Source of the DNA: a virus
Virus record (IMG/VR): IMGVR_UViG_3300016484_000735
Span: 14,418 to 78,417 of that record
Length of the DNA stretch: 64,000 bases
Direction: 5' to 3' (one strand)
Shown here piece after piece: positions 1 through 40,509 of this stretch. Position 1 is the first letter of the stretch, and the number at the start of each line of letters is the position of its first letter. A program made the translations under genes and the position numbers. A model generated the notes under the pieces. The model was not told where the DNA came from. It saw only the letters and a program-made list of their open reading frames with translations, and ran no database searches.

Positions 1-2473
1 CTTCGTACCCGATCACAGTCCCGCCAACCGACTGACGGATCTTGCGAACGAAGATCACCCACGAGTCTTCCTTCGTTGCAGCTTGAACGCCGAGCGTCGG
101 AGCATCCGTGCTCATCGAGAACACCTGCGCGTCCTTCATGCCGGACGAGTAGTTCGGCATCTGAGTAGCACCCATGACCTCCCAGTACCCATTGAGGTTC
201 ACGAGCCCGTTGAACGAGCTATTCGAGCGAAGCACGAGGTTCCCAGATGAATCTGTGTCAAGGATGAACGCATCACCTGCAGCGAACGAAGTCGTGCCTT
301 GCGTCACGGTGAACATCGGGGCGGAGACCGAGAACCCAGACGGTTGGATGTCGTACTGCGTGCCGATCGTGCCAGTCGGGAACGTGCCGCGGATGTTCGA
401 GCGAACGGCGAGCGTCAGACCATCAGCCTGAACTTCGATCGTGAACACTTCACCGGCGACCCAGTACGACCCAGTGACCCAGAGCCCGTTCACGAGCGAG
501 ATCGTCCCGTTCCCGATCGCCGACATCGCGCGGTTGTACCGAAGACCGAAGTAGTTCTGCTCAGCGACCGGTTGCAGCCCAGAGCCAACGTCGCCCGGAG
601 GGTACTTGTTCACGCCATCGATCGTACGCGGCAGCGTCGCGTCGTAGATCCGCGAGTCGTCCTCTGGGTACAACCCCGGATCCGGGATCACGCCGAGCAG
701 CGTGCCAGAAGCGTCAAGAACTCGTGAGGTCGGTTCGCCGTACCAGTGCCGGTCGATCAGACCCTGCATCGCGGTCTTCTCCTTCAGCGAGCCATCGCCG
801 GTCGAGAGCACAGCAACGTACGTACCGTCGAGGTCCTTGTACCGGTCACCGCGGTTGTCCTCGATGAACACACGACGCGGAGCCGACACGACACCAGCGA
901 ATGCCGGGTCGGCTGCCGAGATGTGCATCATCGTGTTCAGCACGCCCGAGGTGCTCAGGAGCGGCTCGATCACTTCATCGATCAGGGCTCGTCCAGAAGC
1001 CGAGGTCGTGATCGTGTTCAGACCCATGGTGTACCGCATCACGAGGTCATCACCGAAGAGCTTCACGTTCTCGTACGAACCGGACGCGTCGTTCCAGTCG
1101 ATGTACTTCGGTTGCCCGGCGAACGTGCGGTTCACGACTTTCAGGCGGAGGATCGACGGATCCTTCAGCATGAACGTGTTCGCATCCTGCCCGTTCACGA
1201 TCCGGTTCTGAGCGTAGTACGTCGACGGCGCCGAGCGACGGATGTGCTCGATCGATTCGGTTGCGGATCCGTTCTGCAGGGTGCTCGTGAGCGAGAACGT
1301 ACCAGAGAACGTTTCGGCGTTCCCGATCGTGCTCGTGTACCCAAGCGAGATCTGCTCGTTCGCGATCTTGTTCTTCTGAATCACGATCGAGTCGTTCGCA
1401 GACTGTCGCATCCAGAACCGGAACGAACCAACAGGTGCATCCGAGAAGTCGCCATCACCGAACAGGACCGAGATCGCGTCGTTCTCAAGGGTGTCAACCT
1501 CGAACTTCTTTCGCGTGCTTCGAAGATCGTTGAACACAAGGTTCTGCTCGTTCACGGACTCGACCTGCTTCCAACGTTCGGCGATCGTGCCATCGGCGTT
1601 CAGCTTCTGGACCCAGACGTCTGTGTTGTTCACGTTCGACGGGGTGAACTCGATCTTCCGATCTGGGAGCTGCTGCGTGATCTCGTAGTCGATCCGGTTC
1701 AGCACGCCCTGCTTCGTGAACATCAGGAACCCAGTGTAGTCCGAAGAGTCGCCGATCCCGTCGTTCGCGTACAGAATCGAGAGCGATGAGCTCAGGTCCG
1801 GTTCGCGTTCGAATGGTCCGTTCGAATCGACGTCCGCCGGCACGATTTCCATCGAGTACGTGTTCAGTCCAGTCGAAGCGGTGTACGCGAACACACCGTT
1901 CCGCAGGGTGCCGGTGTTGTTCTTCAGCGAGTACAGGTCGAACACGACATCGCCGATCTGCACGGACTTCGATGGTTGACCGAACCGAGTCGCCAGCATC
2001 CGGTTCATCACGAGGAAGAACTGCTCCTTCCAGTTCGGGTTGTTCGCATCGTTCCAGGTGATCGTGATCCCGGAGAGGTTCACACCACGAGAATCGAGGA
2101 CTCGTTCCGATGTCGAGACGGTGTTCAGCTTCACCAGCCCACGGACCGGAATGTTCCGAGTCGCCTTGTAGCTGATCAGCTTCGCCAGACGAAGGATCGA
2201 CTGCTTCCGTTGAGCGGTCGTGATGAAGTTCTCATGGGCGACCATGTCGACTCGGTACGCGAGCTGCTCGGCGATGTACGCGAACATCTCAAGCATCGCG
2301 ATGAACTCGGACGACTGGATGTAGTCGTCGAACGCCTCTGGGTAGTACGTGCGAGTGTAGTCGATCAGCGACTGGCGGATCGTGTTGAAGTCGTACGAAA
2401 CGAACGAGACGGCCGAGAACGCCTGGTAGATCTTGTCCCAGGTCTCGGCTGAGTACGTGGTGCGAAGTGCCAT
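1..2473 (-). CDS. gp6: Baseplate wedge protein, T4 gp6-like (3' part runs off the window start; missing from ORF track)
   Basis: ATG at 2473; manual translation MALRTTYSAETWDKIYQAFSAVSFVSYDFNTIRQSLIDYTRTYYPEAFDDYIQSSEFIAMLEMFAYIAEQLAYRVDMVAHENFITTAQRKQSILRLAKLISYK matches the gp6/baseplate J N-terminus (DF..I...L, E.F..TA.....I..LAK..SY). TAAATA on - strand at 2498-2503. Confidence 0.85.
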   Translation of the reverse strand, partial: MALRTTYSAETWDKIYQAFSAVSFVSYDFNTIRQSLIDYTRTYYPEAFDDYIQSSEFIAMLEMFAYIAEQLAYRVDMVAHENFITTAQRKQSILRLAKLISYKATRNIPVRGLVKLNTVSTSERVLDSRGVNLSGITITWNDANNPNWKEQFFLVMNRMLATRFGQPSKSVQIGDVVFDLYSLKNNTGTLRNGVFAYTASTGLNTYSMEIVPADVDSNGPFEREPDLSSSLSILYANDGIGDSSDYTGFLMFTKQGVLNRIDYEITQQLPDRKIEFTPSNVNNTDVWVQKLNADGTIAERWKQVESVNEQNLVFNDLRSTRKKFEVDTLENDAISVLFGDGDFSDAPVGSFRFWMRQSANDSIVIQKNKIANEQISLGYTSTIGNAETFSGTFSLTSTLQNGSATESIEHIRRSAPSTYYAQNRIVNGQDANTFMLKDPSILRLKVVNRTFAGQPKYIDWNDASGSYENVKLFGDDLVMRYTMGLNTITTSASGRALIDEVIEPLLSTSGVLNTMMHISAADPAFAGVVSAPRRVFIEDNRGDRYKDLDGTYVAVLSTGDGSLKEKTAMQGLIDRHWYGEPTSRVLDASGTLLGVIPDPGLYPEDDSRIYDATLPRTIDGVNKYPPGDVGSGLQPVAEQNYFGLRYNRAMSAIGNGTISLVNGLWVTGSYWVAGEVFTIEVQADGLTLAVRSNIRGTFPTGTIGTQYDIQPSGFSVSAPMFTVTQGTTSFAAGDAFILDTDSSGNLVLRSNSSFNGLVNLNGYWEVMGATQMPNYSSGMKDAQVFSMSTDAPTLGVQAATKEDSWVIFVRKIRQSVGGTVIGYE

Positions 2474-2526
2474 GAGGAACCTTGTGCTGTGATCCAGTAT
2501 TTACACTTAAGGGCGGATCTAGATTT

Positions 2527-2590
2527 TGTAACGACCTGAAGTTCGTTACAACTTCGACCATCAGAACTCCTGCGACCGTGTTATAGTACA
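2527..2590 (+). promoter_or_regulatory. Early cassette promoter with TGTAACGA-N8-TCGTTACA inverted repeat and TATAGT -10
   Basis: Perfect 8-bp IR 2527-2550; gtgttatagt upstream of ORF 2613. Confidence 0.7.
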
Positions 2591-2612
2591 TCTATCGACG
2601 CTGGAGAGCATC

Positions 2613-2849
2613 ATGAACGGTAAGCAAAAATTCCACAAGCCGAACGGCCCGGCCTTCAACTGCTGGGAACAGTGGCATGCCGCCGATGGTTCTGGTCGTG
2701 TCGTGGAGATCGACTCCGTCGTGAAGTTCGGAAACGAGAAGTTCGACTACGACGTCACGTACACGGACATCGCAACTGGCGAAACGCACACGAAGGACGC
2801 CTGGAACTTCCAAGTGAAATACTTCCACAGCGCCGACAAGAGCCTGTGA
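2613..2849 (+). CDS. Early hypothetical protein
   Basis: ORF track, GGAG RBS, own promoter. Confidence 0.7.
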   Translation: MNGKQKFHKPNGPAFNCWEQWHAADGSGRVVEIDSVVKFGNEKFDYDVTYTDIATGETHTKDAWNFQVKYFHSADKSL

Positions 2850-2917
2850 AGTACTTCACACCAGGACCTTGAGTTCTGGTGTTACAATGCATCATCAACG
2901 TTTTAGGGAGAACGAAG

Positions 2918-3154
2918 ATGGCCTCGAAAATGACCGCCGCTGCTGCGCTGACCTCTGCCACCGTGATCATTCGTGCTGAGCTGCAGAAGTGCGCCCGTGA
3001 AGCTCTCGAGCTGGAGCGGACTGGCGTCCTACCGGTCGGGATGATCCGCGAAGCCCAGCTGATCCTGATGGATGGCGGCCTCCCGAAGGATGTCGCGTTC
3101 AGCATCCTGCGGACCGAAGCGCTGCATGCGATCGCGTTCTCAGCTGAGAACTAA
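2918..3154 (+). CDS. Early hypothetical protein (start moved to MASKMTAA)
   Basis: GGGAG RBS before ATG 2918; TACAAT -10 upstream. Confidence 0.7.
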   Translation: MASKMTAAAALTSATVIIRAELQKCAREALELERTGVLPVGMIREAQLILMDGGLPKDVAFSILRTEALHAIAFSAEN

Positions 3155-3211
3155 TTCACACAAGAACCACGAGTTCTGTGGTATAGTTCAACCATCGTCA
3201 AGGAGAACGGC

Positions 3212-3547
3212 ATGTCGAACACCGCCACCGAAATCGAAGTCCTGGAACAGCGACTCGCCGAACTCAGGAAGCAGAAGGCGCAAGAGGAAAAGGCCGAAGT
3301 CAGCCTCACCCCGGCCCAGAAGATCGCGATCCGTCTGCACGATTCGCTCTGCTACCATGACCACTGCGGCCAATGCGGCTGGTTCTACGAGATCAGCGAC
3401 GGCGTGCACTCCTGGGGCCCTGGCACGACCCACGACGACTGGTGGCGCCGTGCGAACCAGTTCAAGAAGTTCGCCGAGGAACGGGAGATCGACGTCGAAG
3501 TCGGTCTGGGTTTCGTTGATGCCTTGCGGAAGGGGCGGGTGCTGTAA
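3212..3547 (+). CDS. Early hypothetical protein (coiled-coil N-terminus, CxHxxCxxCxW motif)
   Basis: AGGAG RBS; stop TAA embedded in TGTAAC repeat arm. Confidence 0.75.
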   Translation: MSNTATEIEVLEQRLAELRKQKAQEEKAEVSLTPAQKIAIRLHDSLCYHDHCGQCGWFYEISDGVHSWGPGTTHDDWWRRANQFKKFAEEREIDVEVGLGFVDALRKGRVL

Positions 3548-3610
3548 CAAGACGGTGGTCGTTACAACTTCGGCGTGTACAAGTTCTGCGAGCAGGATAT
3601 AGTACTACTC

Positions 3611-3844
3611 ATGAACACGAACACCACCTCCATCGAAGTCATGAAGCTCGTCGTGCTGCACGACGGTTGCTACGTTCGCGACTTCGGCAAGATCGCTTCG
3701 AAGAGCGTCCTCGTGCAGTACCTCGCGAACTCGATCCATCGCGATGGGAAGTTCGAACTCGCGATCGCTCGGATGACCGGTGAACTCGTGTCGTACCGTC
3801 TGCCACTCCCGAACGTCCTCCGTCGGACTCGGGTTCAGTTCTGA
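3611..3844 (+). CDS. Early hypothetical protein, probably leaderless (MNTNTT...)
   Basis: TATAGT 3598-3603, ATG 7 nt later, no SD. Confidence 0.7.
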   Translation: MNTNTTSIEVMKLVVLHDGCYVRDFGKIASKSVLVQYLANSIHRDGKFELAIARMTGELVSYRLPLPNVLRRTRVQF

Positions 3845-3855
3845 AAGGATTCAAG

Positions 3856-4119
3856 ATGCGTTGCCTCGTGTGGTTCTCATACGGTCGTCCTCGTGTGTTC
3901 GCCCTCCCGGACCTCCCGTCGTTCCAGAAAATCGTGATCGCCCTGCGCGCCGGCACCGCTGGCTGGGGCATCGAAGAAAAAGCGTTCGTCGCTCTCGAGA
4001 AAGCGATCCTCGGTGGATCGATGGTCGCCGCCGAGCGTCGAATCACCGAGTTCCTGAAGGAGCACGGTCTGAACGAGCATGAGATGTTCGAGGCGGCGCA
4101 GTTCATCCGCCTCGAGTGA
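3856..4119 (+). CDS. Early hypothetical protein
   Basis: ORF track; AAGGA RBS. Confidence 0.7.
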   Translation: MRCLVWFSYGRPRVFALPDLPSFQKIVIALRAGTAGWGIEEKAFVALEKAILGGSMVAAERRITEFLKEHGLNEHEMFEAAQFIRLE

Positions 4120-4123
4120 TCCA

Positions 4124-4159
4124 GTAACAGGACCCTGTTACGTAACAGGGTCCTGTTAC
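4124..4159. repeat. Perfect 36-bp palindrome made of two GTAAC-N8-GTTAC units
   Basis: gtaacaggaccctgttac|gtaacagggtcctgttac; second half is the exact reverse complement of the first. Confidence 0.95.
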
Positions 4160-4203
4160 AACTTCAGAGTGTACAAGTTCTGCAGGCGGGTTATAGTACA
4201 CAC

Positions 4204-4542
4204 ATGGACACGAACATCACCTTCGCCGAGTGGAAGATCCTGGAAGCCGAGCGTGCTCGGGAACTGAAGATCCTTCCGTTCCCGTCGTTCGAGAAGTTCT
4301 GTGAGGAGACCGGACGCACTGAGTACGAGGTCGTGATCCTCTCGGAAGAGCACGTTCGGTACCACCTGCCGCAGGTCCCGAAGCTCTGCACGAACTTCCT
4401 CTGGGAAGCTCACGACTTCGCCTCGAAGCTCTTCGAGTCCGAAGGTGTCCGCTGTGCCGTGTACCACCTCCGCACCGACGGCTACGTCGGAATCTACGAG
4501 CCGAAGCCGAAGCGGGATCGCCTCGGTCGTTTCTCGAAGTAA
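4204..4542 (+). CDS. Early hypothetical protein, probably leaderless
   Basis: TATAGT 4192-4197, ATG 6 nt later. Confidence 0.7.
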   Translation: MDTNITFAEWKILEAERARELKILPFPSFEKFCEETGRTEYEVVILSEEHVRYHLPQVPKLCTNFLWEAHDFASKLFESEGVRCAVYHLRTDGYVGIYEPKPKRDRLGRFSK

Positions 4543-4552
4543 GGAGATCACC

Positions 4553-4831
4553 ATGTACCTGGAAGCCAAGGATCTGAAGGTCGGTACCACGTACGAGTGC
4601 TTCGAGAACTGCACCCAGTGCCCGACGATCACCCTGATCCGTCCGGACCGAATCGAGATCGGTCGTGACAGAGTGACCCTGGTCGCCGGCGGAACCTCGT
4701 ACGAGTACACGACCTCGTACGGTCGGTTCAAGGAAGTTCCTCGGGAGATCCTCGAGGCGCGAATCCGCGGCCATCAACGGGTCATCGAGTCGGCGAAGCG
4801 GGAGATCGAGTTCCTCGAGTCCCTGCTGTAA
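4553..4831 (+). CDS. Early hypothetical protein (MYLEAKDLKVG...)
   Basis: AAGGAG RBS; stop TAA in TGTAAC arm. Confidence 0.75.
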   Translation: MYLEAKDLKVGTTYECFENCTQCPTITLIRPDRIEIGRDRVTLVAGGTSYEYTTSYGRFKEVPREILEARIRGHQRVIESAKREIEFLESLL

Positions 4832-4919
4832 CAAGTTCCGGCGGTTACAAATCGCCGATGCAGATCCTCGACGACCGTGTTATAGTAACACTATCGTCAA
4901 ACGAACTGGAACTACGAAC

Positions 4920-5267
4920 ATGAGCTCTCGTCTGGACCGTGCCTGGGCCGTTCTCCCCTGCGCCTGCATCTTCGGTGATCGCACTGCGGTCCCGATGATC
5001 GAGATCGCGAACGAATGGCCGGAAGGTCAGGTCCTCGTCGTGAAGGATCTGCGCACCGATCGCCTCCGCTTCTTCTGCTCGTGCGGAGACCTGGGTTACA
5101 AGGTCGGGCACCGTCAGGAAGCGTATCACGACCAGACCCTGAAGATCATCGGCGAGTTCGAGGTCCTGAACGTCGTGAACTACCGCACCGTGGACGGGAA
5201 GCCGGTGATGAACTCGGCGAACTCCGTCGGCCTCGACAAGAAGGCCCCGATTTACTGCTTCAAGTGA
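4920..5267 (+). CDS. Early hypothetical protein (FCSCGD motif)
   Basis: Cassette promoter and conserved leader upstream. Confidence 0.7.
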   Translation: MSSRLDRAWAVLPCACIFGDRTAVPMIEIANEWPEGQVLVVKDLRTDRLRFFCSCGDLGYKVGHRQEAYHDQTLKIIGEFEVLNVVNYRTVDGKPVMNSANSVGLDKKAPIYCFK

Positions 5268-5297
5268 TCCTCCGCTGAACCCTCTCGAAAGACGACC

Positions 5298-5510
5298 ATG
5301 GAACAAATCTCTTCGTACCTGATCACCCTGAACGTCGGTGCCGGCATCGCCCTGATGTGTGCCATGATCACCGGGTACGGCCTGGTCCTGGAGGTCGCGT
5401 CCGGCGACCTGAGCTCCCTGAAAGACCTCCGTTCGATGAACTGGTACCAAGCCGTTCTGGTCCTGGTGTTCCTGAGCTCCCTCGGGATCTTGTTCCTCCG
5501 AGTGGCGTAA
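5298..5510 (+). CDS. Small two-TM membrane protein
   Basis: Two hydrophobic stretches; stop TAA in GTAAC arm. Confidence 0.7.
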   Translation: MEQISSYLITLNVGAGIALMCAMITGYGLVLEVASGDLSSLKDLRSMNWYQAVLVLVFLSSLGILFLRVA

Positions 5511-5598
5511 CAAGTTCTTCGGTCGTTACGACTTCGGGGTGTACATCTTCGGCGACCGTGTTATAGTAACACTATCGTCAAACGAACTGGAGATCGAA

Positions 5599-5934
5599 AT
5601 GGGATTCCGTACCGTCGTCGTTCTGAACAATGACTACGCTCACGAGTGGGAGAACGACCCCGAGCTCGGCAAGAAGATCTTCCTGGCTGCCTCGGCTGCT
5701 CAGTTCGGCCGCGACGAGAGTCAGGCCCGTCGGATCCTGCCGTACGGCCAGGCCATCGAGCAGGTCCATGCGGACTGCCAGACCGTGGCGATCCTGGACG
5801 GGTACGGCGGGAAGGCCGTCGCGTACAGCCACGGCCGTCGTGCGCAGACCGACGAGGAACGAGACCTGGCCTGCCTGAAGGCCCTCGCCGAGAAGCTCGG
5901 GTACCGTGTTTCGAAGAAGCCGGTGAAGGGCTGA
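5599..5934 (+). CDS. Early hypothetical protein (MGFRTVVVL...)
   Basis: GGAG RBS in conserved leader; start moved to 5599. Confidence 0.75.
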   Translation: MGFRTVVVLNNDYAHEWENDPELGKKIFLAASAAQFGRDESQARRILPYGQAIEQVHADCQTVAILDGYGGKAVAYSHGRRAQTDEERDLACLKALAEKLGYRVSKKPVKG

Positions 5935-6036
5935 TCGTTACAACTTCGGAGTGTACAAGTTCTGCGAGCAGGATATAGTATACGAGTTCCACCACGACGA
6001 TGGCCTGAAGGTCCTTCGCATCACCCTGGTTCAGCA

Positions 6037-6336
6037 ATGAAAAACGACTTCCTCGGAAATTCCCTCGAGATCGGCGACCTGGTCGTGGTCCCGGCCCCGC
6101 AGTACCACCACCTCACGATCGCTCGTGTGTACGCGTTCACTCCGAAGGGAGCCCGAGTCGAGTTCCTGAACACCTGGAACTTCGATCCGAAGGATCCGCG
6201 GTACACCCAGTACCTCGCCGCCCCGTCGTACCTCACGAAGATCACGACTCCCACGGAAGCCTCGATCGCCGCGGCCGCCGCTCTGGACGCCGCTCGGGTC
6301 AAGAAGAACCTCCCGCCGATCAGCGAACTCTCGTAA
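6037..6336 (+). CDS. Early hypothetical protein (phage D.LG..L.IGD.V SH3-like motif)
   Basis: MKNDFLGNSLEIGDLVV; stop TAA in GTAAC arm. Confidence 0.7.
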   Translation: MKNDFLGNSLEIGDLVVVPAPQYHHLTIARVYAFTPKGARVEFLNTWNFDPKDPRYTQYLAAPSYLTKITTPTEASIAAAAALDAARVKKNLPPISELS

Positions 6337-6426
6337 CAAGTTCTTCGGACGTTACAATTCTCCGATGTACAAGTTCTGAAGGCGTGTTATAGTACACCTA
6401 TCGACACACGAACTGGAATCACGAAC

Positions 6427-6789
6427 ATGGAACAGATCCGCATCGCCCCCGTCGCCAAGGGTTACTTCGCCTCGATGAAGGTCACCCTGGCCGACATCGC
6501 CCGGAAGCGTCGTGCCGGTATCGCCGTGTTCGCTGAGCGTCACAATCCGGACGGCAGCATCACTCAGGTGTTCCTGATTCCGGAAGGCACCTCGATCAAG
6601 ACCAAGGAAGGCGAGTTCCTGGAGGCCGTGAACCTGAAGACGAAGCGCCCGTACGGCCAGCACCAGGTCCTGGCGAAGCTGAAGTTCTCGATGAAGCGAG
6701 GTTTCCTGGAGATCGACGGGATCGCCCCGGCGACCGCCGCGTACGCCGATGCTCTGGACCTGGAAGCCGTCGCGTTCGAAGTCGCTTGA
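6427..6789 (+). CDS. Early hypothetical protein
   Basis: Cassette promoter and leader upstream. Confidence 0.75.
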   Translation: MEQIRIAPVAKGYFASMKVTLADIARKRRAGIAVFAERHNPDGSITQVFLIPEGTSIKTKEGEFLEAVNLKTKRPYGQHQVLAKLKFSMKRGFLEIDGIAPATAAYADALDLEAVAFEVA

Positions 6790-6819
6790 AGAACAGAGAT
6801 CCTCTGAAGGAGTTACGCA

Positions 6820-7008
6820 ATGAAACACTCTGAGCACGAGTTCAAGGTCGATGACGTCGGTGCCCGCGGTCGCGTCACCGGTGACGAGTGGCTCGCTCTG
6901 TCCGCCGTGTTCGAGACGCTGTTCAGCGAAAGCCAGGCGAGCCAGAAGCCGGCTCTTGATCCTCTGACGATCGAGGTCCTTCAAGAGGACGACGGCGAGA
7001 TCGACTGA
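6820..7008 (+). CDS. Early hypothetical protein
   Basis: AAGGAG RBS. Confidence 0.6.
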   Translation: MKHSEHEFKVDDVGARGRVTGDEWLALSAVFETLFSESQASQKPALDPLTIEVLQEDDGEID

Positions 7009-7154
7009 GACGGAACACCAGTCCCAGGCAGTCCGCTCCCTGGCGGCGAACAGGGCGGCCGGTCGTTACAAGTTCTAGGCGTTACAACTTCGGGGTGTAC
7101 ATTCCACGTCGGCAGGTTATTATTCACCTATCGACAACGAACCGGAACATCGAA

Positions 7155-7439
7155 ATGTCCTTCAAGACCTGGTACAAGAAGCAAGTCACGACCTCGACGA
7201 AGTTCCGGAACACCGTGCTGGTCGTGGCAGCTCCCGTGGTGTACGGTGCCGCGATCGTCGCCTGTGTCTGGCACTGCCTGAAGGACATCGGATCGACGAT
7301 CGTCGACTCGGTCGTTCAGACGAAGAACACCGTGAGCGATGTGAACGCGTACTACCGCGCCGTGTTCTCCACGAAGGCCGGTGAGGAATACACCCCGCCG
7401 GCTGCGAACACCGTTCGTCCCGTTCGTTACGAGGACTGA
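7155..7439 (+). CDS. Early membrane-anchored hypothetical protein (MSFKTWY...)
   Basis: Conserved leader; one hydrophobic segment. Confidence 0.7.
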   Translation: MSFKTWYKKQVTTSTKFRNTVLVVAAPVVYGAAIVACVWHCLKDIGSTIVDSVVQTKNTVSDVNAYYRAVFSTKAGEEYTPPAANTVRPVRYED

Positions 7440-7493
7440 ACCGGTTACAACTTCAGAGTGTACAATCCCTAGGATCAGGTTATAGTACTACTC

Positions 7494-7691
7494 ATGAACA
7501 CGAACACGACCTTCACCACCACGTTCCTGACCCGCCACGATGGCATCGGCACGATTCACCAAGGTGTGATTCGCCGCCTGGAACACGGTGAGAACATCGT
7601 GTACGCCGTGATCGAATCGATCGACGAACGCAAGATGAAGCGTGTCGTCGCCAAGGAACTGAAGATCCTGAAAGCCAAGGAACAAGCATGA
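7494..7691 (+). CDS. Early hypothetical protein, probably leaderless (MNTNTT...)
   Basis: TATAGT 7481-7486, ATG 7 nt later. Confidence 0.7.
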   Translation: MNTNTTFTTTFLTRHDGIGTIHQGVIRRLEHGENIVYAVIESIDERKMKRVVAKELKILKAKEQA

Positions 7692-8071
7692 AGCCCCTGA
7701 AATTCTACTCCGGTGCCGATCTGCCCACCGCGAACCCTCGTGACTTCGACACCGTGTACGTGTACCGTCAAGGCATCGTTGAGTTCACCGGCACTCGGGA
7801 CGAGCACGAGCAGTTCGTGAGTGCGAACCCGGGCTCGAAGGACTGGGTCACCGAGTACGTTCGCGACGAGGATGCCCTGAAGGCAGCTCGTCAGAAGTAC
7901 ACGAAGGATCGTGCGACCCGGGCGGCCCAGTTCCTGAACGACCTCTCTCAAGAGAACGGCCTGCCGGTTTCGAAGATCTCGAAGATCCTGGAGCTGGCCG
8001 CGAATCTTGATCTGGACCCAGAACAGAAGGTCGAACTCGTCGAAGGGTTCGCGAAGATCTTCCGGAGCTGA
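7688..8071 (+). CDS. Early hypothetical protein
   Basis: ATGA overlap with upstream stop. Confidence 0.7.
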   Translation: MKPLKFYSGADLPTANPRDFDTVYVYRQGIVEFTGTRDEHEQFVSANPGSKDWVTEYVRDEDALKAARQKYTKDRATRAAQFLNDLSQENGLPVSKISKILELAANLDLDPEQKVELVEGFAKIFRS

Positions 8072-8073
8072 AC

Positions 8074-8244
8074 ATGAACGTGATCTTCCTGACCGAAGAC
8101 CGGATGCCGGAGACGATCTGGGTCGCCGCACCGGAAGTCGGTGATGTCCTGTCGATTCCGAACGATGGCGACGACGAACTGCAGTCGTACGTGATCGATT
8201 CGGTGAACCTCCCTCTGAACACCGTGTACGTGAGGAACCTCTGA
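8074..8244 (+). CDS. Small hypothetical protein, 56 aa, missing from ORF track (MNVIFLTEDRMPETIWVAAPEVGDVL...)
   Basis: Fills the gap exactly; TGA overlaps ATG of the next gene; phage-like codon use. Confidence 0.65.
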   Translation: MNVIFLTEDRMPETIWVAAPEVGDVLSIPNDGDDELQSYVIDSVNLPLNTVYVRNL

Positions 8245-8597
8245 TGAGCCCGACTCCGTCTGAAGTCACTTCCCTGGCCGTGAGCCTGAACCTGAAGATC
8301 GACGAGGTCCTGAAAGCGTTCGAGTTCGAGAAGGTCCGAAAGGTCATGGAATTCCTGGACTGGAAGTGGTCCACGAACTCCGGTTACCAGACTCCGGACG
8401 TCGCCGAACTCCGGAGAACGGCTCGACGTCTCCTGAACTCCACCGTGGAAAGGTGGTTCTTGCAGGGTCGTCCGGCGAGCGGGATGACGGTATCGACCGG
8501 TGGCCTCGTCGCCGAGATCGTCCTGTTCGCCGCCGACGAAGACCGCATGAATCCCAAGGTGGTCCTGACGTTCTACGTCGATCAGCGCGATGCCTGA
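8244..8597 (+). CDS. Early hypothetical protein (F.FEKV.KVM..L.W.W type phage family)
   Basis: Translationally coupled ORF. Confidence 0.7.
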   Translation: MSPTPSEVTSLAVSLNLKIDEVLKAFEFEKVRKVMEFLDWKWSTNSGYQTPDVAELRRTARRLLNSTVERWFLQGRPASGMTVSTGGLVAEIVLFAADEDRMNPKVVLTFYVDQRDA

Positions 8598-8607
8598 AGG
8601 AAACATC

Positions 8608-9075
8608 ATGATCCGCACCCTGTTCCTGATCCTCCTGTCCCTGTTCTCGCTGCCGTCGTTCGCCGGTATCAGTGATGCCGTGAACCTCACGATGTGCGCC
8701 GTCTCGTTCGATGCCGGTGATCCTCGTCGGGTGCAGTTCGCTCAGCGGGCATTCGACGCGATGCCGACCGACGTGTACGCTCAGAACCCGACGCTGCTCC
8801 CGGTCGGTGCCGATCCGAAGACCGCGGCGTACACGGCAGCCGTCGGGGCGAGCCGTCTGGAACTCGAGGAACGAACGGTGCAGTTCCTGAACGTGGAGGC
8901 GAACAAGAGGATCCGTTCGTTCGAGGCGTACAGCACCCTGCTCATGATCTCGAAGAAGGGTGCCTGGATCGTCGCGTACTCCCGGGCCGCCGGTGTCTCG
9001 CCGGCCGAGGCTGAACGAACCTGGGCTGATGGTGAACTCGCCGTTCGTCGTCAGTTCCAGCTGAACTGCAAGTGA
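8608..9075 (+). CDS. Exported hypothetical protein with signal peptide
   Basis: MIRTLFLILLSLFSLPSFA-G signal-peptide pattern. Confidence 0.7.
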   Translation: MIRTLFLILLSLFSLPSFAGISDAVNLTMCAVSFDAGDPRRVQFAQRAFDAMPTDVYAQNPTLLPVGADPKTAAYTAAVGASRLELEERTVQFLNVEANKRIRSFEAYSTLLMISKKGAWIVAYSRAAGVSPAEAERTWADGELAVRRQFQLNCK

Positions 9076-9144
9076 TCTGTGACGTAGTTCACACACGTTC
9101 TCGAAGTTCTGGTGTACAATGTTTCATCGTTACGGGAGAACACT

Positions 9145-9357
9145 ATGGCACTGTCGTTCGTCTCTTTCGTCCTGAAGAACGTCGTGATGCAGAACCTCGT
9201 GGTTCTGTGGATCCTGCTCACGGCGATCCTGTTCCTGGCCCTGGGCCGCGGTGAGACCCTCACGATCAGCGTACTGTTCGCGATGTACCTCAGCGGGGCG
9301 GTGTGTTCCGCTCTGGGCCTGACGAAGCTGTTCATCCGGTGCCTGATGCCAGAGTAA
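9145..9357 (+). CDS. Small multi-TM membrane protein
   Basis: GGGAG RBS; hydrophobic; TACAAT -10 upstream. Confidence 0.65.
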   Translation: MALSFVSFVLKNVVMQNLVVLWILLTAILFLALGRGETLTISVLFAMYLSGAVCSALGLTKLFIRCLMPE

Positions 9358-9411
9358 AAATTCCGAAAGTTTCCGTGCCTGGGCTCGAAGTTCCGGTGTA
9401 TAATGGATCTC

Positions 9412-9594
9412 ATGAACATCCTGAAGTCCTGCCCGGTTCTGTCGTTCATCGCGATCGTCCTGATCTCGACGTTCCTGACCTCGCTGTCCGTGAACCCGGA
9501 AGCCGGTGCCGCCGTGTTCGTGATCGAAGTCATGCTGTCCCTGATCGGCACGATCACGATGATGTTCGTCTCCCTGCTGACCTCGAAGAGCTAA
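9412..9594 (+). CDS. Small two-TM membrane protein, probably leaderless
   Basis: TATAAT 9399-9404, ATG 7 nt later. Confidence 0.65.
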   Translation: MNILKSCPVLSFIAIVLISTFLTSLSVNPEAGAAVFVIEVMLSLIGTITMMFVSLLTSKS

Positions 9595-9597
9595 GCC

Positions 9598-9876
9598 ATG
9601 AACACCCTTGAACAGGTCCGTTCCGCCCTCGTCGCCAAGGCCGTTGATGCCACTGAGCTCCGCCTGGCACCGTTCGAGGAGAAGTTCTACGTTCGACACA
9701 CCTCGGAGACCGGTGAGGGCGTTCTGATCTCGGTCCGGAAGACCGACGGTCTGAATGAACTCCTGGTGTACGGTGTCTCCCTGAAGCAGAACGCTGGGTT
9801 CACGCAGTACCTGAAGTTCGCCGGCACTCCCGAGACCCTGGCTGAAGAACTCGTGGCCTCGTTCGCCGCGTACTAA
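9598..9876 (+). CDS. Early hypothetical protein
   Basis: ORF track; codon bias. Confidence 0.7.
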   Translation: MNTLEQVRSALVAKAVDATELRLAPFEEKFYVRHTSETGEGVLISVRKTDGLNELLVYGVSLKQNAGFTQYLKFAGTPETLAEELVASFAAY

Positions 9877-9954
9877 AAATCCACAAGTTCCGATGTACAA
9901 GTTCTGAGGGCGTGTTATAGTACACCTATCGACACACGAACCGGAACCGCGAAC

Positions 9955-10287
9955 ATGAACATGGACTTCTTCGAACTGCAGGCCCTGTCCCAAATGCAGG
10001 CCTCCTTCAAGAACACGAAGGAGTTCAACGGAGTTCGGGTGGTGATGGTCGATCACGTTGACCAGTACCGTGAAGACTTCAAGGTCACCGTGTACGGTGA
10101 AGGCGAGTACTGGGACCTGGAGATCACGATCCTCGAAGGTCAGATCCTGATCAGCGGGTTCGAGGACGAGTCGGTCGTGGGTTCTGGCACGATCGCTCTG
10201 AAGTACCGTGAAGGCGAGAAGTCCTGTAACACCGTCGCCCGCTGCCTGTCCCGGATCGCCGAAGAGATCGAGTTCCGGTCGAACTGA
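9955..10287 (+). CDS. Early hypothetical protein
   Basis: Cassette promoter and leader upstream. Confidence 0.7.
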   Translation: MNMDFFELQALSQMQASFKNTKEFNGVRVVMVDHVDQYREDFKVTVYGEGEYWDLEITILEGQILISGFEDESVVGSGTIALKYREGEKSCNTVARCLSRIAEEIEFRSN

Positions 10288-10382
10288 TACATCCATCAGA
10301 ACTTCGTTACACTTCACCAGTGTACAAGTTCTGAGGGCATGTTATAGTAACACTATCGACACACGAACCGGAGCTACGAACC

Positions 10383-10628
10383 ATGAACGCCAAGAACCTG
10401 CACGCCGCTCTGTCTGCCCACACCGACACCCGTCACCTGGTTCTGCACGTGCTGCCGCTGCAAGGCGAGAAGTTCTATGTTCGTGTGATCGGCAAGACCG
10501 AAGTGGTTCGTGTGAAGATCACCGTCGGTGACAGCATCCAGTACGTCGCCGAGACCACCAAGAAGGGTGACGTCACCGGCACCGCCAAGGATCTGAACGA
10601 GCTGAAGTCGTTCCTGATGAAGCTCTGA
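10383..10628 (+). CDS. Early hypothetical protein
   Basis: Cassette promoter and leader with GGAG. Confidence 0.7.
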   Translation: MNAKNLHAALSAHTDTRHLVLHVLPLQGEKFYVRVIGKTEVVRVKITVGDSIQYVAETTKKGDVTGTAKDLNELKSFLMKL

Positions 10629-10749
10629 TCGTTACAACCTCCGGAGATCGTTACACTTTCACTGAACCTGAATCCTCGAACCGTGTTATAGTAACACTGT
10701 CGACAACGACATCAACCACCCTCCAGCACTTCGTCAAAGGAACACCACC

Positions 10750-11301
10750 ATGACCGCTACCGCCACCGTCCTGTCCCTGATCCCCAGCACCCGCGCCATG
10801 ATCTCCGGCACGAAGACCACGCTGTTCGACGCCGCTGTGGCCCTCGGCACCGGTCGTGTCACCGTCGCCCTGCGCGACAACGGCGAGAAGATCAACGGTA
10901 CCCTGGTGTTCATCGGCGGTGACGTCGGCGAGGTCGGCAGCACGGTGAACGCCCTGAACGCCCGGAACAAGGCGAAGTACGGCACGCACCTGATCCTGGG
11001 CACCGTGGACCTGGTGGTCCAAGAAACCGAAGGTGATCCCCTGGTCGCGATCTCCGACGTGAACGCCGACATCGACGTCGACCTGAACACCAAGGCCGCT
11101 CTGTTCACCGTCGCCGACACCAGCACCGTGTCCGCCGAGACCGTGACCGTCGTGAAGGCCAAGGACGGCACCGTCGTCGCCGCTGACGTCACCGTCGAGA
11201 CCGCCGAACTCCTGATCGCCAAGGCCAAGGCCGGCAAGCAAGCTGCCCTGAAGATCGCCAGCTCCACCGACCTCCTGATCGCCGAAGCCGTCGAGGCCTG
11301 A
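10750..11301 (+). CDS. Early hypothetical protein, beta-rich, strongly biased codons
   Basis: AAAGGA RBS; followed by a terminator-like hairpin. Confidence 0.75.
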   Translation: MTATATVLSLIPSTRAMISGTKTTLFDAAVALGTGRVTVALRDNGEKINGTLVFIGGDVGEVGSTVNALNARNKAKYGTHLILGTVDLVVQETEGDPLVAISDVNADIDVDLNTKAALFTVADTSTVSAETVTVVKAKDGTVVAADVTVETAELLIAKAKAGKQAALKIASSTDLLIAEAVEA

Positions 11302-11328
11302 TCCCCGACCGCCGGTTACGACCGGCCA

Positions 11329-11366
11329 GAAACACCCAGCGCCGTTACAGGTTCTGGGTGTTTTCG
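11329..11366 (+). terminator. Rho-independent terminator-like hairpin
   Basis: aaacacccag...ctgggtgttt followed by a T-rich tract. Confidence 0.6.
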
Positions 11367-11372
11367 TTTCTG

Positions 11373-11644
11373 AGTTCTTGTGGTACAATGATTCATCATC
11401 TGGAGAACTGAACCATGAAGAACTTCATCAAGGCTCTGATCGAACGTCTGACGAAGATCTCTCCCGCCGTCGGTGCTGCTCGCATCGAGGCTGAACTCGC
11501 TCGCCGTCAGGCAGCGTTCGTTCAAGAACTGCGTTCGAAGGTGCTGTAACGGATCCGTTACGATAAAGGTGCGTCCAAAGAACCTGAACTGAAGTTCTTG
11601 TGGTACAATGATTCATCATCTGGAGAACTGAGCCATGAAGAACT
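11373..11644 (+). repeat. 52-bp direct repeat (11373-11424 / 11593-11644, 1 mismatch) = promoter, RBS and MKN start
   Basis: agttcttgtggtacaatgattcatcatctggagaactga[a/g]ccatgaagaact; 220-bp period. Confidence 0.95.
11415..11549 (+). CDS. 44-aa basic amphipathic peptide missing from ORF track (MKNFIKALIERLTKISPAVGAARIEAELARRQAAFVQELRSKVL)
   Basis: Own promoter and GGAG RBS; stop TAA within perfect palindrome gtaacggatccgttac (11546-11561). Confidence 0.75.
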   Translation: MKNFIKALIERLTKISPAVGAARIEAELARRQAAFVQELRSKVL

Positions 11645-11886
11645 GGAACCTGATTCGCTCGAAGCAGACCTTCAACGAGTTCACCACCGCTCTGCGTCAC
11701 AACATCGAACGCGACGGCCCGGTTCTGGTCGAACTGCGGGATGGCACGAAGGTCGTCGTTCAGAACGGCACGCCCGAAGAACTTCTGGAGAACCAGATCG
11801 CGTTCCGGACCCGGGACTTCCGGCGGATCTGGAATGCCGATGGTTCGTCGGTGACCTCCGAGAACCTCGACATCATCGAGTTCTGA
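11635..11886 (+). CDS. Early hypothetical protein
   Basis: Second copy of the promoter/RBS repeat upstream. Confidence 0.75.
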   Translation: MKNWNLIRSKQTFNEFTTALRHNIERDGPVLVELRDGTKVVVQNGTPEELLENQIAFRTRDFRRIWNADGSSVTSENLDIIEF

Positions 11887-11914
11887 ACACCCACGACGAA
11901 CTAGGAACCACATC

Positions 11915-12316
11915 ATGATCAAGGCGCCTCGCACCGCTCAAGGTTTCACGATGATCGAACTGATCGTCGCGATCGTTCTGATCGGTGTCCTCGCCGCAGT
12001 GTCCGTCCCGCGTTTCCTTGACGCGAAGCCGAACGCGCAGAGCGCCATCAAGAGCCACGTGATCTCGGTGATTCGTACCGGAGACGCGATGAACAACTCG
12101 ATTCGATACGCCACGAACTACACGATGGGCGTTCGAACCTTCGGGATGCCGTGTAACTTCGTGATTCCGAGCGTCGTTCAGTCCGGCAAGCTTCCGCCCG
12201 GCTTCATCATCTACGCCGGCATCATCGTGACCGGGAACGTCGGTGAAACGTTCAACTGCCAGATGCGAGGTCCGGACAACGTGAATTTCACGGTGCCGAT
12301 CACGATCGTGATGTAA
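11915..12316 (+). CDS. Type IV pilin-like protein (prepilin N-terminal cleavage/methylation motif)
   Basis: K..R..QG|FTMIELIVAIVLIGVLAAVSVPRF: G-1/F+1, E+5, P+22 class III signal; two C-terminal Cys. Confidence 0.9.
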   Translation: MIKAPRTAQGFTMIELIVAIVLIGVLAAVSVPRFLDAKPNAQSAIKSHVISVIRTGDAMNNSIRYATNYTMGVRTFGMPCNFVIPSVVQSGKLPPGFIIYAGIIVTGNVGETFNCQMRGPDNVNFTVPITIVM

Positions 12317-12329
12317 CACCACCGCGACG

Positions 12330-12382
12330 AATACAGCATTAGGTGCTGAATAAAAACGAAGGGACTCATCCGAGTCCTTTTT
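12330..12382 (+). terminator. Conserved 3' element copy A (AATACAGCATTAGGTGCT) plus terminator hairpin
   Basis: 18-nt identity to copies at 27129 (+) and 53108 (-); aagggactc-atcc-gagtccttt then T tract. Confidence 0.75.
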
Positions 12383-12597
12383 GGGCTTTCCGCACACCGG
12401 GCTGATACTCTGTTCAGGCCAAGGAATTCCGCCCCAGGGACCGCTCAGAACGCTCCGCTTCCGACACTCGTAGTGTAAGATCCACCCCGCTTTTGACGGT
12501 CCCTGGCGCCGCCCTCCGGACTCTGTAACAGCTCAAAAAGCCGAACACTCGTCGAAGTTCTGGTGTATAATGATTCATCAACGAACTGGAGATCGAG

Positions 12598-12927
12598 ATG
12601 ACCGAAGCGAACCGTGGTACCGAGATCATGAACCTGTTCCCGGCAGCGTTCTACGCCACGAAGTCGACCTCGATGAACAGCGTCGAGTTCAGCACTGTGG
12701 GCGAGAACGAAGTGAGCTTCACCTGCACGTGCTCGAACACCGGACGTCCGCTGATCGTCACCATCAAGATCAACGTCGATAACTTCGCGATCGCCAAGAT
12801 CCAGAACGGCAAGAACATCCACACCGCAGGCTTCGTGCCGGCTCGTGTGATCACTCAAGAAGTCGTTGAAGACCTGGTGATGGCGATCAGCAATCAGATC
12901 GACGAGATGTTCTTCCTGGAGATCTGA
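12598..12927 (+). CDS. Early hypothetical protein, paralogue 1
   Basis: MTEANRGTEIMNLFPAAFYATKSTSMNSVEF; near-identical N-terminus to next gene. Confidence 0.8.
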   Translation: MTEANRGTEIMNLFPAAFYATKSTSMNSVEFSTVGENEVSFTCTCSNTGRPLIVTIKINVDNFAIAKIQNGKNIHTAGFVPARVITQEVVEDLVMAISNQIDEMFFLEI

Positions 12928-12991
12928 TCAAGAGCCGAACACGCGACGAAGTTCTGGTGTATAATGAACCATGAACGAACTGGAGATCGAG

Positions 12992-13315
12992 ATGACTGAA
13001 CAGAACCGCGGCACTGAGTTCATGAACCTGTTCCCGACCGCGTTCTACTCCACGAAGACGACCTCGATGAACAGCGTCGAGTTCCAAGTCACGAACGAGG
13101 ACAAGGTCACGTTCACCTGCACGTCCTCGCACACCGGACGACCGGTCCTCGTCACGATCGAGTTCGGTAAGAACTTCGCCGTCGTCACCGCCTTCGATGG
13201 CACGAACGCCGATCGTGCAGCACCGGTGTTCGCTCCGGTGATCACGCTCGCCTCGGTCGAAATGCTCGTCGAGAGCATCAGCGACCTGATCGAGAACCTG
13301 TTCTACCGGTTCTGA
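12992..13315 (+). CDS. Early hypothetical protein, paralogue 2
   Basis: MTEQNRGTEFMNLFPTAFYSTKTTSMNSVEF; duplicated promoter/RBS; start set by analogy. Confidence 0.8.
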   Translation: MTEQNRGTEFMNLFPTAFYSTKTTSMNSVEFQVTNEDKVTFTCTSSHTGRPVLVTIEFGKNFAVVTAFDGTNADRAAPVFAPVITLASVEMLVESISDLIENLFYRF

Positions 13316-13696
13316 TCAAGAACCGATCGGGAACTCGAGCCGCATCGTCTCGGTCAAGTTCAACCGAAGGTAAGTGAGATCGATGATCGCCACGATCGCG
13401 TTGTTGTCCGGCAGAGCCAGAACGACCAGCTCGTCCAGCTGAACTCGAGGTTCAGCGGCGATCACAGTCCGGAGCTGCGATTCGATCGTCGACACGGTAT
13501 CCTCGTCCAACGGTTCGAACGCCATCATCGGAATCGTCGTGCCGAAGTCCGGGTTCATCGGACGCTCGCCCTTGATCGTCCAGATCGCGTTCAGCAGATC
13601 TCGCTTCACGGTCTCGATTCCAGAAGTTCCGAACGATCGGTCCTTGCGCTCCAGTTGAGAAGCGGTGCTGAACCCACGATAGATCATCTTAGCCAT
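13316..13696 (-). CDS. gp25: Baseplate wedge subunit gp25-like
   Basis: MAKMIYRGFST...VKRDLLNAIWTIKGERPMNPDFGTTI...IAAEPRVQL = GPW/gp25 family signature. Confidence 0.9.
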   Translation of the reverse strand: MAKMIYRGFSTASQLERKDRSFGTSGIETVKRDLLNAIWTIKGERPMNPDFGTTIPMMAFEPLDEDTVSTIESQLRTVIAAEPRVQLDELVVLALPDNNAIVAIIDLTYLRLNLTETMRLEFPIGS

Positions 13697-13703
13697 TTTA
13701 CCC

Positions 13704-19490: not shown

Positions 19491-19618
19491 AGTTCCTCCT
19501 GAACCTAGATCCGATCGTATTTATGGGTGTTCTAGATCCTGTTTTTTGTGTACTCCCTCGTGGTACCGTGTTACAATGACACTGTGCCGTTACAGTAACC
19601 ACTCCACCGAGAGTTCAG

Positions 19619-23839: not shown

Positions 23840-23878
23840 CGACAGTGGATAAATACGGGATCTGCACAAGGATCCCGT

Positions 23879-37873: not shown

Positions 37874-37899
37874 TGCTTTCTACGTGGTATAGTTCGTGT

Positions 37900-38181
37900 A
37901 TGACTACCACACAGTTCGACGCAAAGCGTAACGAAGCCAAGGCTCTGATGGAGGCCGTGGGCCTCACCGACATCTCGTTCCCAGGCATCGACAAGTTCGG
38001 CAAGGCCCTTGTGACGTTCACCCACACCGAGTGCGGGACTACACAGACTTGGCAGTTGGGCAACGTCAAGAAGCGCCTGAAGGCCGATGCGAATACTGCG
38101 CCGTGTTCTCACTGCGGGGCGAAGCGGCGCACAATGAACGCCACCCTGAAGTCAGCGGAAGTTCGTGGCAAAAAGGCTTGA
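37900..38181 (+). CDS. Zinc-ribbon protein (H..CG...C..C), probably leaderless
   Basis: TGTGG/TATAGT 37888-37893 six nt before ATG; TFTHTECGTTQTW...PCSHC. Confidence 0.7.
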   Translation: MTTTQFDAKRNEAKALMEAVGLTDISFPGIDKFGKALVTFTHTECGTTQTWQLGNVKKRLKADANTAPCSHCGAKRRTMNATLKSAEVRGKKA

Positions 38182-40445: not shown

Positions 40446-40509
40446 CGAAGAACCGTTCGTTACACTTTAGCTGTTTACAGTCGCCTAGGTTGTGGTATAG
40501 TACAACCTA
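40441..40509 (+). promoter_or_regulatory. Early-type promoter with TGTAACGAA-N6-TTCGTTACA repeat, TTTACA -35 and TGTGG-TATAGT -10
   Basis: Same inverted repeat as the early cassettes; ATG 7 nt after -10. Confidence 0.75.

Follow-up and report, generated by a model that had tools for sequence, protein, structure and literature searches.

The window analysed here, 64,000 nucleotides long (positions 14418-78417 of a 135,176-bp viral contig, IMG/VR record IMGVR_UViG_3300016484_000735; 57.5% G+C), contains repeated pairs of GTAAC and GTTAC arms. A first-pass annotation had described them as inverted repeats that swallow the stop codon of the preceding gene, and had offered either an attC-like recombination core or an array of operator or activator sites as the explanation. 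We conclude that these pairs are probably the two upstream boxes, here called R1 and R2, of a repeated early-promoter cassette that lies on the + strand only. There is also good reason to think that the boxes are cis-acting recognition elements, placed upstream of early promoters that would be read by the sigma-70 polymerase of the host.

Two boxes in fixed register with a predicted promoter

Alignment of 22 cassettes on the -10 hexamer yields a consensus that runs R1, N11-14, R2 (tcGTTACAatTTc), 4-5 nt, a gTGTACA -35 region, 16 nt, (TGn)TATAgT, 6-7 nt and AT[C/G], with TGTACA or TTTACA as variants of the -35 hexamer. The R box has the core GTWAC and the fuller form TYGTWACRA, a degenerate palindrome. 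In 21 of the 22 cassettes the distance from R2 to the -10 is 32 nt, and an information profile across the same set shows that conservation of R2 equals that of the -10 and exceeds that of the -35.

The arrangement is strand-specific and far more frequent than chance predicts. All 20 pairs in the contig with GTAAC or GTTAC as R1 lie on the + strand, the matches on the - strand being the same palindromic loci read in reverse, and the shared promoter follows 20 of the 21 GTWAC-N10-14-GTTAC matches (the exception is at window position 19570). In the 135-kb contig the pattern GTTAC-N32/33-TAnnnT occurs 23 times on the + strand and never on the - strand; within the window it occurs 12 times, against 0.49 expected. 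Of the 20 copies of TATAGT in the contig, 19 are on the + strand and one on the - strand, and an independent consensus scan of 2400-13400 recovered nine TGTACA-N16-TATAGT promoters, all on the + strand, where 2.4 were expected. The GTAAC-N10-14-GTTAC pair itself is present six times in the window, compared with 0.05 expected from dinucleotide shuffles. The eight sites first listed are thus all present, but that list was incomplete: it omitted the GTTAC...GTTAC pairs at 7065, 7426 and 10631, the cassettes with R2 only (5937 and 10306) and nine cassettes outside the window. Likewise, the boxes do pair up, but as two promoter-upstream boxes rather than as independent inverted repeats.

That each unit has its own promoter was borne out, with -35/-10 elements in every unit. 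TGn is present in all five cassettes without a -35 hexamer, and a perfect TGTACA in all five without TGn; this complementarity fits the usual trade-off within sigma-70 promoters. We infer that transcription starts at the A of AT[C/G], 6-7 nt past the -10. Cassettes with a leader carry ATC exactly where leaderless ones carry ATG, which points to a conserved A as the start. In six leaderless R-box cassettes of the contig the A of the start is the A of the ATG (window 3611, 4204, 7494 and 40509, and two outside the window with -10/ATG near equivalents 83005 and 100024), and a seventh such ATG follows a promoter without R boxes at 37888 (37888-37902). Relative to this putative start, R2 covers about -51 to -38, with R1 beginning at about -65 to -68. 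The sequence ACGAAC recurs in leaders (window 4890-4920, 5571-5600, 6397-6427 and 9925-9955, for example ACGAACTGGAAnnACGAACATG) and in the first codons of the leaderless genes 3611, 4204 and 7494 (ATGAACACGAACAC, giving protein MNTNTT); a translation-related signal is one possible explanation, common cassette ancestry another.

The individual cassettes of the window, all on the + strand, vary around this plan. Cassette 1 (2528-2587) has an inverted-type R1 at 2528-2532 (TTGTAACGA), R2 at 2545-2549, no -35 hexamer, and TGn with the -10 TATAGT at 2582-2587; its target is the open reading frame (ORF) 2613-2849, and no + strand gene lies upstream of it, yet both boxes are present. Cassette 2 (3544-3613) comprises R1 at 3544-3548, whose TAA is the stop of ORF 3212-3547, R2 at 3561-3565, the -35 TGTACA at 3576-3581, the -10 at 3598-3603 and a leaderless ATG at 3611. 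Cassette 3 (4124-4206) opens with a perfect 36-bp palindrome (4124-4159) of four stacked GTWAC units, the last of which is R2 (4155-4159), and continues with a -35 at 4170-4175, a -10 at 4192-4197 and a leaderless ATG at 4204. Cassette 4 (4828-4922) has a direct-type R1 at 4828-4832 (GTAACAAGTTC) that supplies the TAA stop of ORF 4553-4831, R2 at 4844-4848, TGn with the -10 at 4881-4886 and an ATG at 4920. The R1 of cassette 5 (5507-5601) occupies 5507-5511 and provides the stop of ORF 5298-5510; R2 follows at 5525-5529, the -35 at 5540-5545, the -10 at 5562-5567 and the ATG at 5599. Cassette 6 (5937-5979) has no R1: R2 (5937-5941) is immediately preceded by TGAtc, the stop of ORF 5599-5934, the -35 is at 5952-5957 and the -10 at 5974-5979, and the leader to the ATG at 6037 is atypically long. 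In cassette 7 (6333-6429), R1 at 6333-6337 holds the TAA stop of ORF 6037-6336, with R2 at 6351-6355, the -35 at 6366-6371, the -10 at 6388-6393 and the ATG at 6427.

Farther along, cassette 8 (7065-7123) drives ORF 7155-7439 and consists of a direct-type R1 at 7065-7069 (GTTACAAGTTC), R2 at 7081-7085, a -35 at 7096-7101 and the -10 TATTAT at 7118-7123, while cassette 9 (7426-7496) has R1 at 7426-7430, R2 at 7444-7448, a -35 at 7459-7464, a -10 at 7481-7486 and a leaderless ATG at 7494. Cassette 10 (9879-9921), which drives ORF 9955-10287, shows a degenerate R2 (CCACAAGTTCC) with a -35 at 9894-9899 and a -10 at 9916-9921; cassette 11 (10306-10348) lacks a clear R1 and drives ORF 10383-10628 from R2 at 10306-10310, a -35 at 10321-10326 and a -10 at 10343-10348. 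Cassette 12 (10631-10692) has a TGA stop at R1-5, a direct-type R1 at 10631-10635, R2 at 10650-10654 and no -35 hexamer; with TGn and a -10 at 10687-10692, it drives ORF 10750-11301. Cassette 13 (40442-40511) stands apart, within the late structural region. Its inverted-type R1 at 40442-40446 (TGTAACGAA) provides the TAA stop of the late gene 39567-40445, and R2 (40459-40463), the -35 TTTACA (40474-40479) and the -10 (40496-40501) lead to the leaderless ATG at 40509 of a photolyase-like gene (40509-41711; weak Pfam matches to FAD_binding_7 and DNA_photolyase).

Promoters of a second type lack R boxes and combine AGTTCTkGTG with a following TAYAAT (extended -10); they lie at 2850-2890, 3155-3190, 11365-11392, 11590-11612, 12545-12572 and 12940-12965. 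The copies at 2850 and 3155 are preceded by an imperfect inverted repeat whose arms vary between copies with complementarity kept, and they are therefore closer to a classic stem-loop-plus-promoter cassette than the R-box cassettes are. At 11323-11365 a terminator-like hairpin (AAACACCCAG...CTGGGTGTTT) with a T-rich tail holds GTTACAGGTT in its loop, that is, an R-box-like sequence inside a genuine stem-loop. An outlier on the + strand at 11546-11561, a perfect 16-bp palindrome (GTAACGGATCCGTTAC) of two R cores with an N6 spacer, contains the TAA stop of a 44-aa ORF (11415-11549) and lies 42 nt, not 32, upstream of the -10 of a promoter of this second type (TGgTACAAT).

Box orientation, folding and stop codons

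GTWAC is its own reverse complement save for the centre base, so any two copies resemble an inverted repeat. When the flanks of R1 were scored against the R2 matrix, with 82 other GTWAC sites in the contig as the reference, 14 of 20 exceeded the 95th percentile of those sites; 11 R1 boxes are direct (tcGTTACAAGTTC or its centre-A version), eight are inverted (TTGTAACGA) and one is ambiguous. By these scores the upstream box conforms to TYGTWACRA and is present in both orientations. The alternative description of the arms as direct repeats reaching into the -35 holds for about half of the R1 boxes.

The arms could instead work at the RNA level. In T4-type phages, promoter-early stem-loop (PeSL) cassettes (Arbiol et al. 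2010, PMC2839356; Comeau et al. 2014, PMC4122927) carry a stem-loop just 5' of the promoter (PMC4122927), and by this reading GTAAC...GTTAC would pair in the RNA, and the resulting stem-loop would terminate or stabilise the transcript from upstream just before the next promoter. Seven inverted-type pairs do fold (-8.7 to -12.4 kcal/mol, z about -3 to -4.5), the element at 4124-4159 is a perfect palindrome and stop codons abut the element. However, the eight GTTAC...GTTAC pairs among the 20 reach 0 to -3.4 kcal/mol, values that do not improve on those of shuffled sequence, and the mean z is -1.2; no T-run lies 3' of the R1-R2 pairs, and the gene array shows no excess of terminator-like sites (8 against 9.7 expected). 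Because eight pairs are unfoldable and both terminator signs are missing, the feature common to the cassettes is sequence and not a hairpin. Moreover, the arms are kept by sequence without compensatory change, the 'tc' flank of R2 persists even beside a direct R1, and the orthologous cassette in two relatives (L039 and L022) has a direct R1 in place of the hairpin-capable one. A fixed distance from R2 to the -10 would be needless for an RNA element, and cassette 1 has no upstream transcript on the + strand to act on. We consider the stem-loop reading improbable.

Stop codons are better explained by the box itself. The six ORFs that had been said to end within GTAAC do so (at 3547, 4831, 5510, 6336, 11549 and 40445), and 7 of the 11 GTAAC-type R1 boxes supply the upstream stop, where a random frame predicts one in three; all five direct-type GTAACAA boxes are among these seven. 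In five further cassettes TGA or TAA lies exactly 5 nt 5' of R1. As the comparisons with relatives described below indicate, the centre base of R1 is free and serves as a stop codon where a gene packs against the cassette, which explains the 'swallowed' stops; whether the stop is the A-centred one inside R1 or the one 5 nt before it, genes are docked to the left edge of the cassette.

Other candidates were considered and set aside. R2 is not the -35 of a tandem promoter, as no -10-like hexamer lies 16-18 nt downstream. LytTR/AlgR-like direct repeats were rejected on the grounds that the CCGTTCGTT flank is found in few cassettes and the period is 16-19 bp rather than 21-22 bp. The strict -10 register argues against a restriction or homing-endonuclease target, and an RNA processing site was rejected in view of the lack of a transcript upstream of cassette 1 and a register set at the DNA level.

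Conservation in relatives and exchange of gene units

The contig, with an estimated completeness of 43%, has genes for a tail sheath, a baseplate hub and a portal of the T4 type (Pfam Portal_T4, 2e-90). By portal, its closest cultured phage is Ralstonia phage RsoM2USA (344 kb, 51% protein identity), uncultured relatives are many, and megablast of 25 kb of the contig against cultured phages returned no match. In five of the relatives (G004, G006, G007, G010 and G011; 60-78% portal identity) the order R2, 4-5 nt, TGTACA, N16 and TAnnAT recurs in a strand-specific manner, as in G006 with 0 forward and 8 reverse matches (controls 0/0), and the cassettes of G011 again have two boxes and leaderless ATGs. 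The motif is absent from RsoM2USA (3+5 matches against 12+12 in the control) and from G013 (55% portal identity). Exact cassette patterns had no match in viral and metagenome collections, and a metagenome scan identified ten true cassettes in environmental contigs, the looser pattern used there having mostly matched one unrelated gut-bacterial sequence (104 matches). The latter is an exact 24-mer (TCGTTACAAGTTCCCTGAGTTACA) shared by 104 contigs (L247-L366), mostly from human-gut metagenomes; as a widespread unrelated sequence matching the pattern by chance, it was rejected as a phage cassette. A literature search on TGTACA or such a promoter type in jumbo phages found nothing relevant.

Comparison of orthologous cassettes provides what we regard as the strongest evidence for selection on the boxes. 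Upstream of the photolyase-like gene at 40509, R1 is inverted and supplies a TAA stop here but is direct with a TGA upstream in L039 and L022; all three phages share a leaderless ATG and an R2 placed exactly 32 nt upstream of the -10, while the -35 region differs. In another relative, L343, the homologues of ORFs 6427, 10750, 4920 and 5599 (proteins 47-64% identical) are preceded by the same R1, R2, -10 and ATCG start, with diverged -35 regions and flanks. Three of these four units have GTTAC there and GTAAC here, where the A belongs to the stop of an unrelated upstream gene.

These comparisons bear on the possibility that the boxes have no function of their own and are hitch-hiking remnants of repeated duplication of an ancestral promoter region, such as extra copies of the -35. 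The R boxes do resemble the -35 region (GTTACA compared with TGTACA or TTTACA), an AAGTTC flank recurs and the cassettes form near-identical subfamilies, but both boxes are kept in orthologous cassettes despite 45-66% protein identity of the flanking genes and a changed -35 region, the position of R2 is invariant, and the boxes persist in phages of 60-78% portal identity. Of the explanations weighed here, hitch-hiking is the least credible.

Most cassettes of the window belong to a 10.8-kb + strand array of about 28 small genes (2527-13315), a hyperplastic region. At the curated Pfam cut-off 27 of 28 array ORFs had no match, and the lone gene that passed carries a type IV pilin signal (11915-12316). 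Paralogy is limited to one pair, the tandem genes 12598-12927 and 12992-13315, which are 56% identical and each have their own second-type promoter. The array is flanked by baseplate-module genes on the - strand, an 824+ aa gene at 2-2473 and a gp25-like gene at 13316-13699; at the latter, two convergent stops make TGATCA at 13313-13318. Because the same two flanking genes lie about 30 bp apart in L110, L111, L115 and L116, the array is a hyperplastic insertion into a late operon, in the opposite orientation. Other small ORFs occupy that position in L109.

Homologues of the array genes were found solely via loci matching the cassette pattern. Two contigs from the sample series of the closest relative, L343 and L363, contain homologues of eight array genes (45-66% protein identity); for two array ORFs, a degenerate-pattern method gave no close relatives in viral contigs. 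The homologues form units that each follow a cassette, namely 3212 alone; 6427 with 8074 and 8244; 10750 alone; 4920 with following ORFs; and 5599 with 7688. The order here is 3212, 4920, 5599, 6427, (7688, 8074, 8244), 10750. In all five units the same gene lies directly 3' of the promoter in both phages, yet the units are permuted; in the window, ORF 3212 is preceded by a second-type promoter without R boxes. Over 60 nt, identity between cassettes reaches about 80%, while the neighbouring genes are unrelated. Parts of cassettes also look exchanged: a -35 region of the type GAACCTGA(A/T)TCC is shared by the cassette of 10750 in this phage, that of the photolyase gene in L022 and that of the 6427 homologue in L343.

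Such permutation, together with boxes that coincide exactly with gene ends (the stop lies within the box or 5 nt ahead of it), an array that is itself an insertion, and cassette 6, which resembles a collapse of R1 and R2, is what might be expected if a phage recombinase cut an attC-like core at GTT/AAC to move gene cassettes. As in integrons, an AAC/GTT element is repeated at gene 3' ends in a modular array and some copies are inverted repeats. The likeness ends there. An integron attC is an imperfect 57-141-bp palindrome with R''/L''-L'/R' cores (GTTRRRY), whereas the arms here measure 5-9 bp around N11-14 and form no bulged hairpin, 8 of 20 pairs are unfoldable direct repeats, and GTTACAA has C where GTTRRRY requires R. 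Integron cassettes are promoterless and share a common promoter; here each unit has its own -35/-10. The tyrosine recombinase family PF00589 is absent from the contig (itself 43% complete) and from five relatives, four of them at least 97% complete, and no serine recombinase (PF00239) was found in the contig or in complete cassette-bearing relatives. A strict 32-nt register to the -10, on the + strand only, speaks for a role in transcription, and about 100 bp of cassette similarity suffices for homologous exchange. Site-specific recombination at the boxes is thus very improbable. What survives of the modular idea is that cassettes bound gene units permuted between relatives, which fits homologous exchange between repeated cassettes of the kind described for PeSLs (PMC4122927).

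A proposed role and its relation to known systems

The operator or activator array was the better supported half of the original proposal, given the fixed -10 distance, the restriction to the + strand, conservation of sequence rather than pairing and the retention of the boxes in the orthologous cassettes of relatives. The -35, TGn and -10 most likely serve a host RNA polymerase of the sigma-70 type, which the R boxes, placed in the zone of UP elements and activators, most likely recruit or hold. Candidate binders are a sequence-specific protein, phage-delivered or from the host, or the alpha C-terminal domains. R2 would be the main box, set at a constant distance from the core promoter and capable of replacing a missing -35; R1 would be a second copy, tolerant of position and orientation, whose centre A can give the upstream TAA stop, the gene otherwise stopping 5 nt before the box. 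Carried by many unrelated small genes, the cassette of roughly 100 bp may in addition offer homology for recombination that reorders promoter-gene units in a PeSL-like manner.

Binding at the boxes could also repress. A phage early or middle protein acting on R-box operators might shut early promoters later in infection, as T4-type phages must shut off early transcription (PMC2988021), and a palindromic core, paired orientation-tolerant sites and clade-wide conservation are compatible with this. However, the boxes fall between about -38 and -68, a zone upstream of the core promoter in which activators and UP elements act, R2 is kept in cassettes without a -35, suggesting compensation, and no candidate repressor was found among the array ORFs by Pfam. 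Repression is thus unlikely, and box position and the retention of R2 where the -35 is lost lead us to regard activation as about twice as probable.

Several points weigh against the activating early-promoter reading or limit its reach. We infer promoter activity, protein binding and recombination within cassettes, as well as start sites and 'early' timing, for which the grounds are sequence and analogy with T4. Searches for Sigma70_r4 and the MotA C-terminal domain (the latter without a positive control) were negative and gave no candidate binder. R1 carries less weight than R2: it is dispensable in some cassettes here (5937 and 10306), and other relatives either lack it or have it adjacent or at a distance of 5 to 21 nt, so R2 appears to be the constant element and R1 an auxiliary one. 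Similarity among cassettes may partly reflect recent duplication within the genome instead of selection; the orthologous comparisons mitigate this concern but span just five cassettes. In 185,579 prokaryote species (one genome each), the composite pattern of R2, TGTACA and -10 gave 59 single hits and never more than one per genome, in a scan that demanded TGTACA and fixed spacing and that a host promoter with R2 only would escape. These hits fall mostly in A/T-rich taxa, as chance predicts, and give no clue to the host; the cassette does not appear to be a cellular promoter type. As for exchange, some differences in order in L343 fall off the cassettes (6427|8074 and 5599|7688), cassette breakpoints are partly true by construction, the units having been defined as starting with a cassette, and the relatives are too distant (45-66% protein identity) for exact placement of crossovers.

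A more specific proposal, which we put forward tentatively, is that a dedicated factor of this jumbo-phage clade recognises the R box; a virion-delivered protein and a modified alpha subunit are two examples. If so, that factor would flag the early promoters of the phage to the host polymerase through a clade-wide, phage-specific promoter element that has a second copy in either orientation and can replace the -35, and the same element would define the joints at which promoter-gene units are exchanged. More generally, the cassette offers an early-promoter definition (R box at -49, TGTACA -35, TGn, TATAGT and an A start) for a widespread, uncultured clade of T4-like giant phages, usable for annotating early genes and leaderless starts in metagenomes, and the recognition box would point to a novel factor or polymerase contact.

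Among known systems, the early promoters of T4 provide one comparison. They consist of UP/-35/TGn/-10 with extra conserved information at -40 to -60 (Hinton 2010, PMC2988021), and the phage studied here shares with T4 its portal type, the -35, TGn and -10, a conserved -40 to -60 zone and a separate ATAAATA late class. The sequence cATAAATA, in fuller form cATAAATA(c/g), occurs 12 times on the + strand and twice on the - strand of the contig, mostly a short way 5' of structural genes; copies stand at window positions 23849, 39536, 50508, 56016, 60541 and others. It has the look of a late promoter class akin to T4 TATAAATA. Its placement before structural genes matches that of the late promoter of T4, and the phage therefore appears to keep its early and late promoter classes separate, as T4 does. 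R2, at about -51 to -38, coincides with the position of a UP element, and R1 lies farther upstream, beginning at about -65 to -68. In composition the two differ: T4 UP elements are A/T-rich tracts read by alpha C-terminal domains, whereas here tcGTTAC is the most conserved part, only the 3' half of R2 (ACAATTT) is A/T-rich, making a moderately A/T-rich tail, and a second copy lies upstream in either orientation. Neither an Alt-like enzyme nor a box-binding protein was identified.

The closest relation is to the PeSL cassettes. Each is a repeated composite regulatory cassette, found between the small orphan genes of hyperplastic regions, with a sigma-70-like -35/-10 promoter, an extra conserved element just 5' of it, and a leader and start codon at the 3' end, and each is tied to gene insertions and reordering between related phages. 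Three of the four features that define a PeSL are present (a sigma-70-like promoter, hyperplastic location and association with rearrangement); the fourth, a terminator stem-loop, is missing as judged from folding, T-runs and the terminator scan, and conserved boxes are found instead. Where a PeSL has a variable G+C stem-loop terminator, the cassettes described here have a box pair conserved in sequence and fixed in distance; in addition, their -35 is TGTACA, several are leaderless, and the upstream stop is docked in the first box or 5 nt before it. Mini-circles and exchange inside the cassette belong to the PeSL side of the comparison. We therefore assign them to a known kind, the PeSL-like cassette, in which conserved recognition boxes in place of the terminator hairpin would be the new element. 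This suggests that T4-type gene-shuffling cassettes also exist in a form whose upstream element is a recognition box and not a terminator hairpin.

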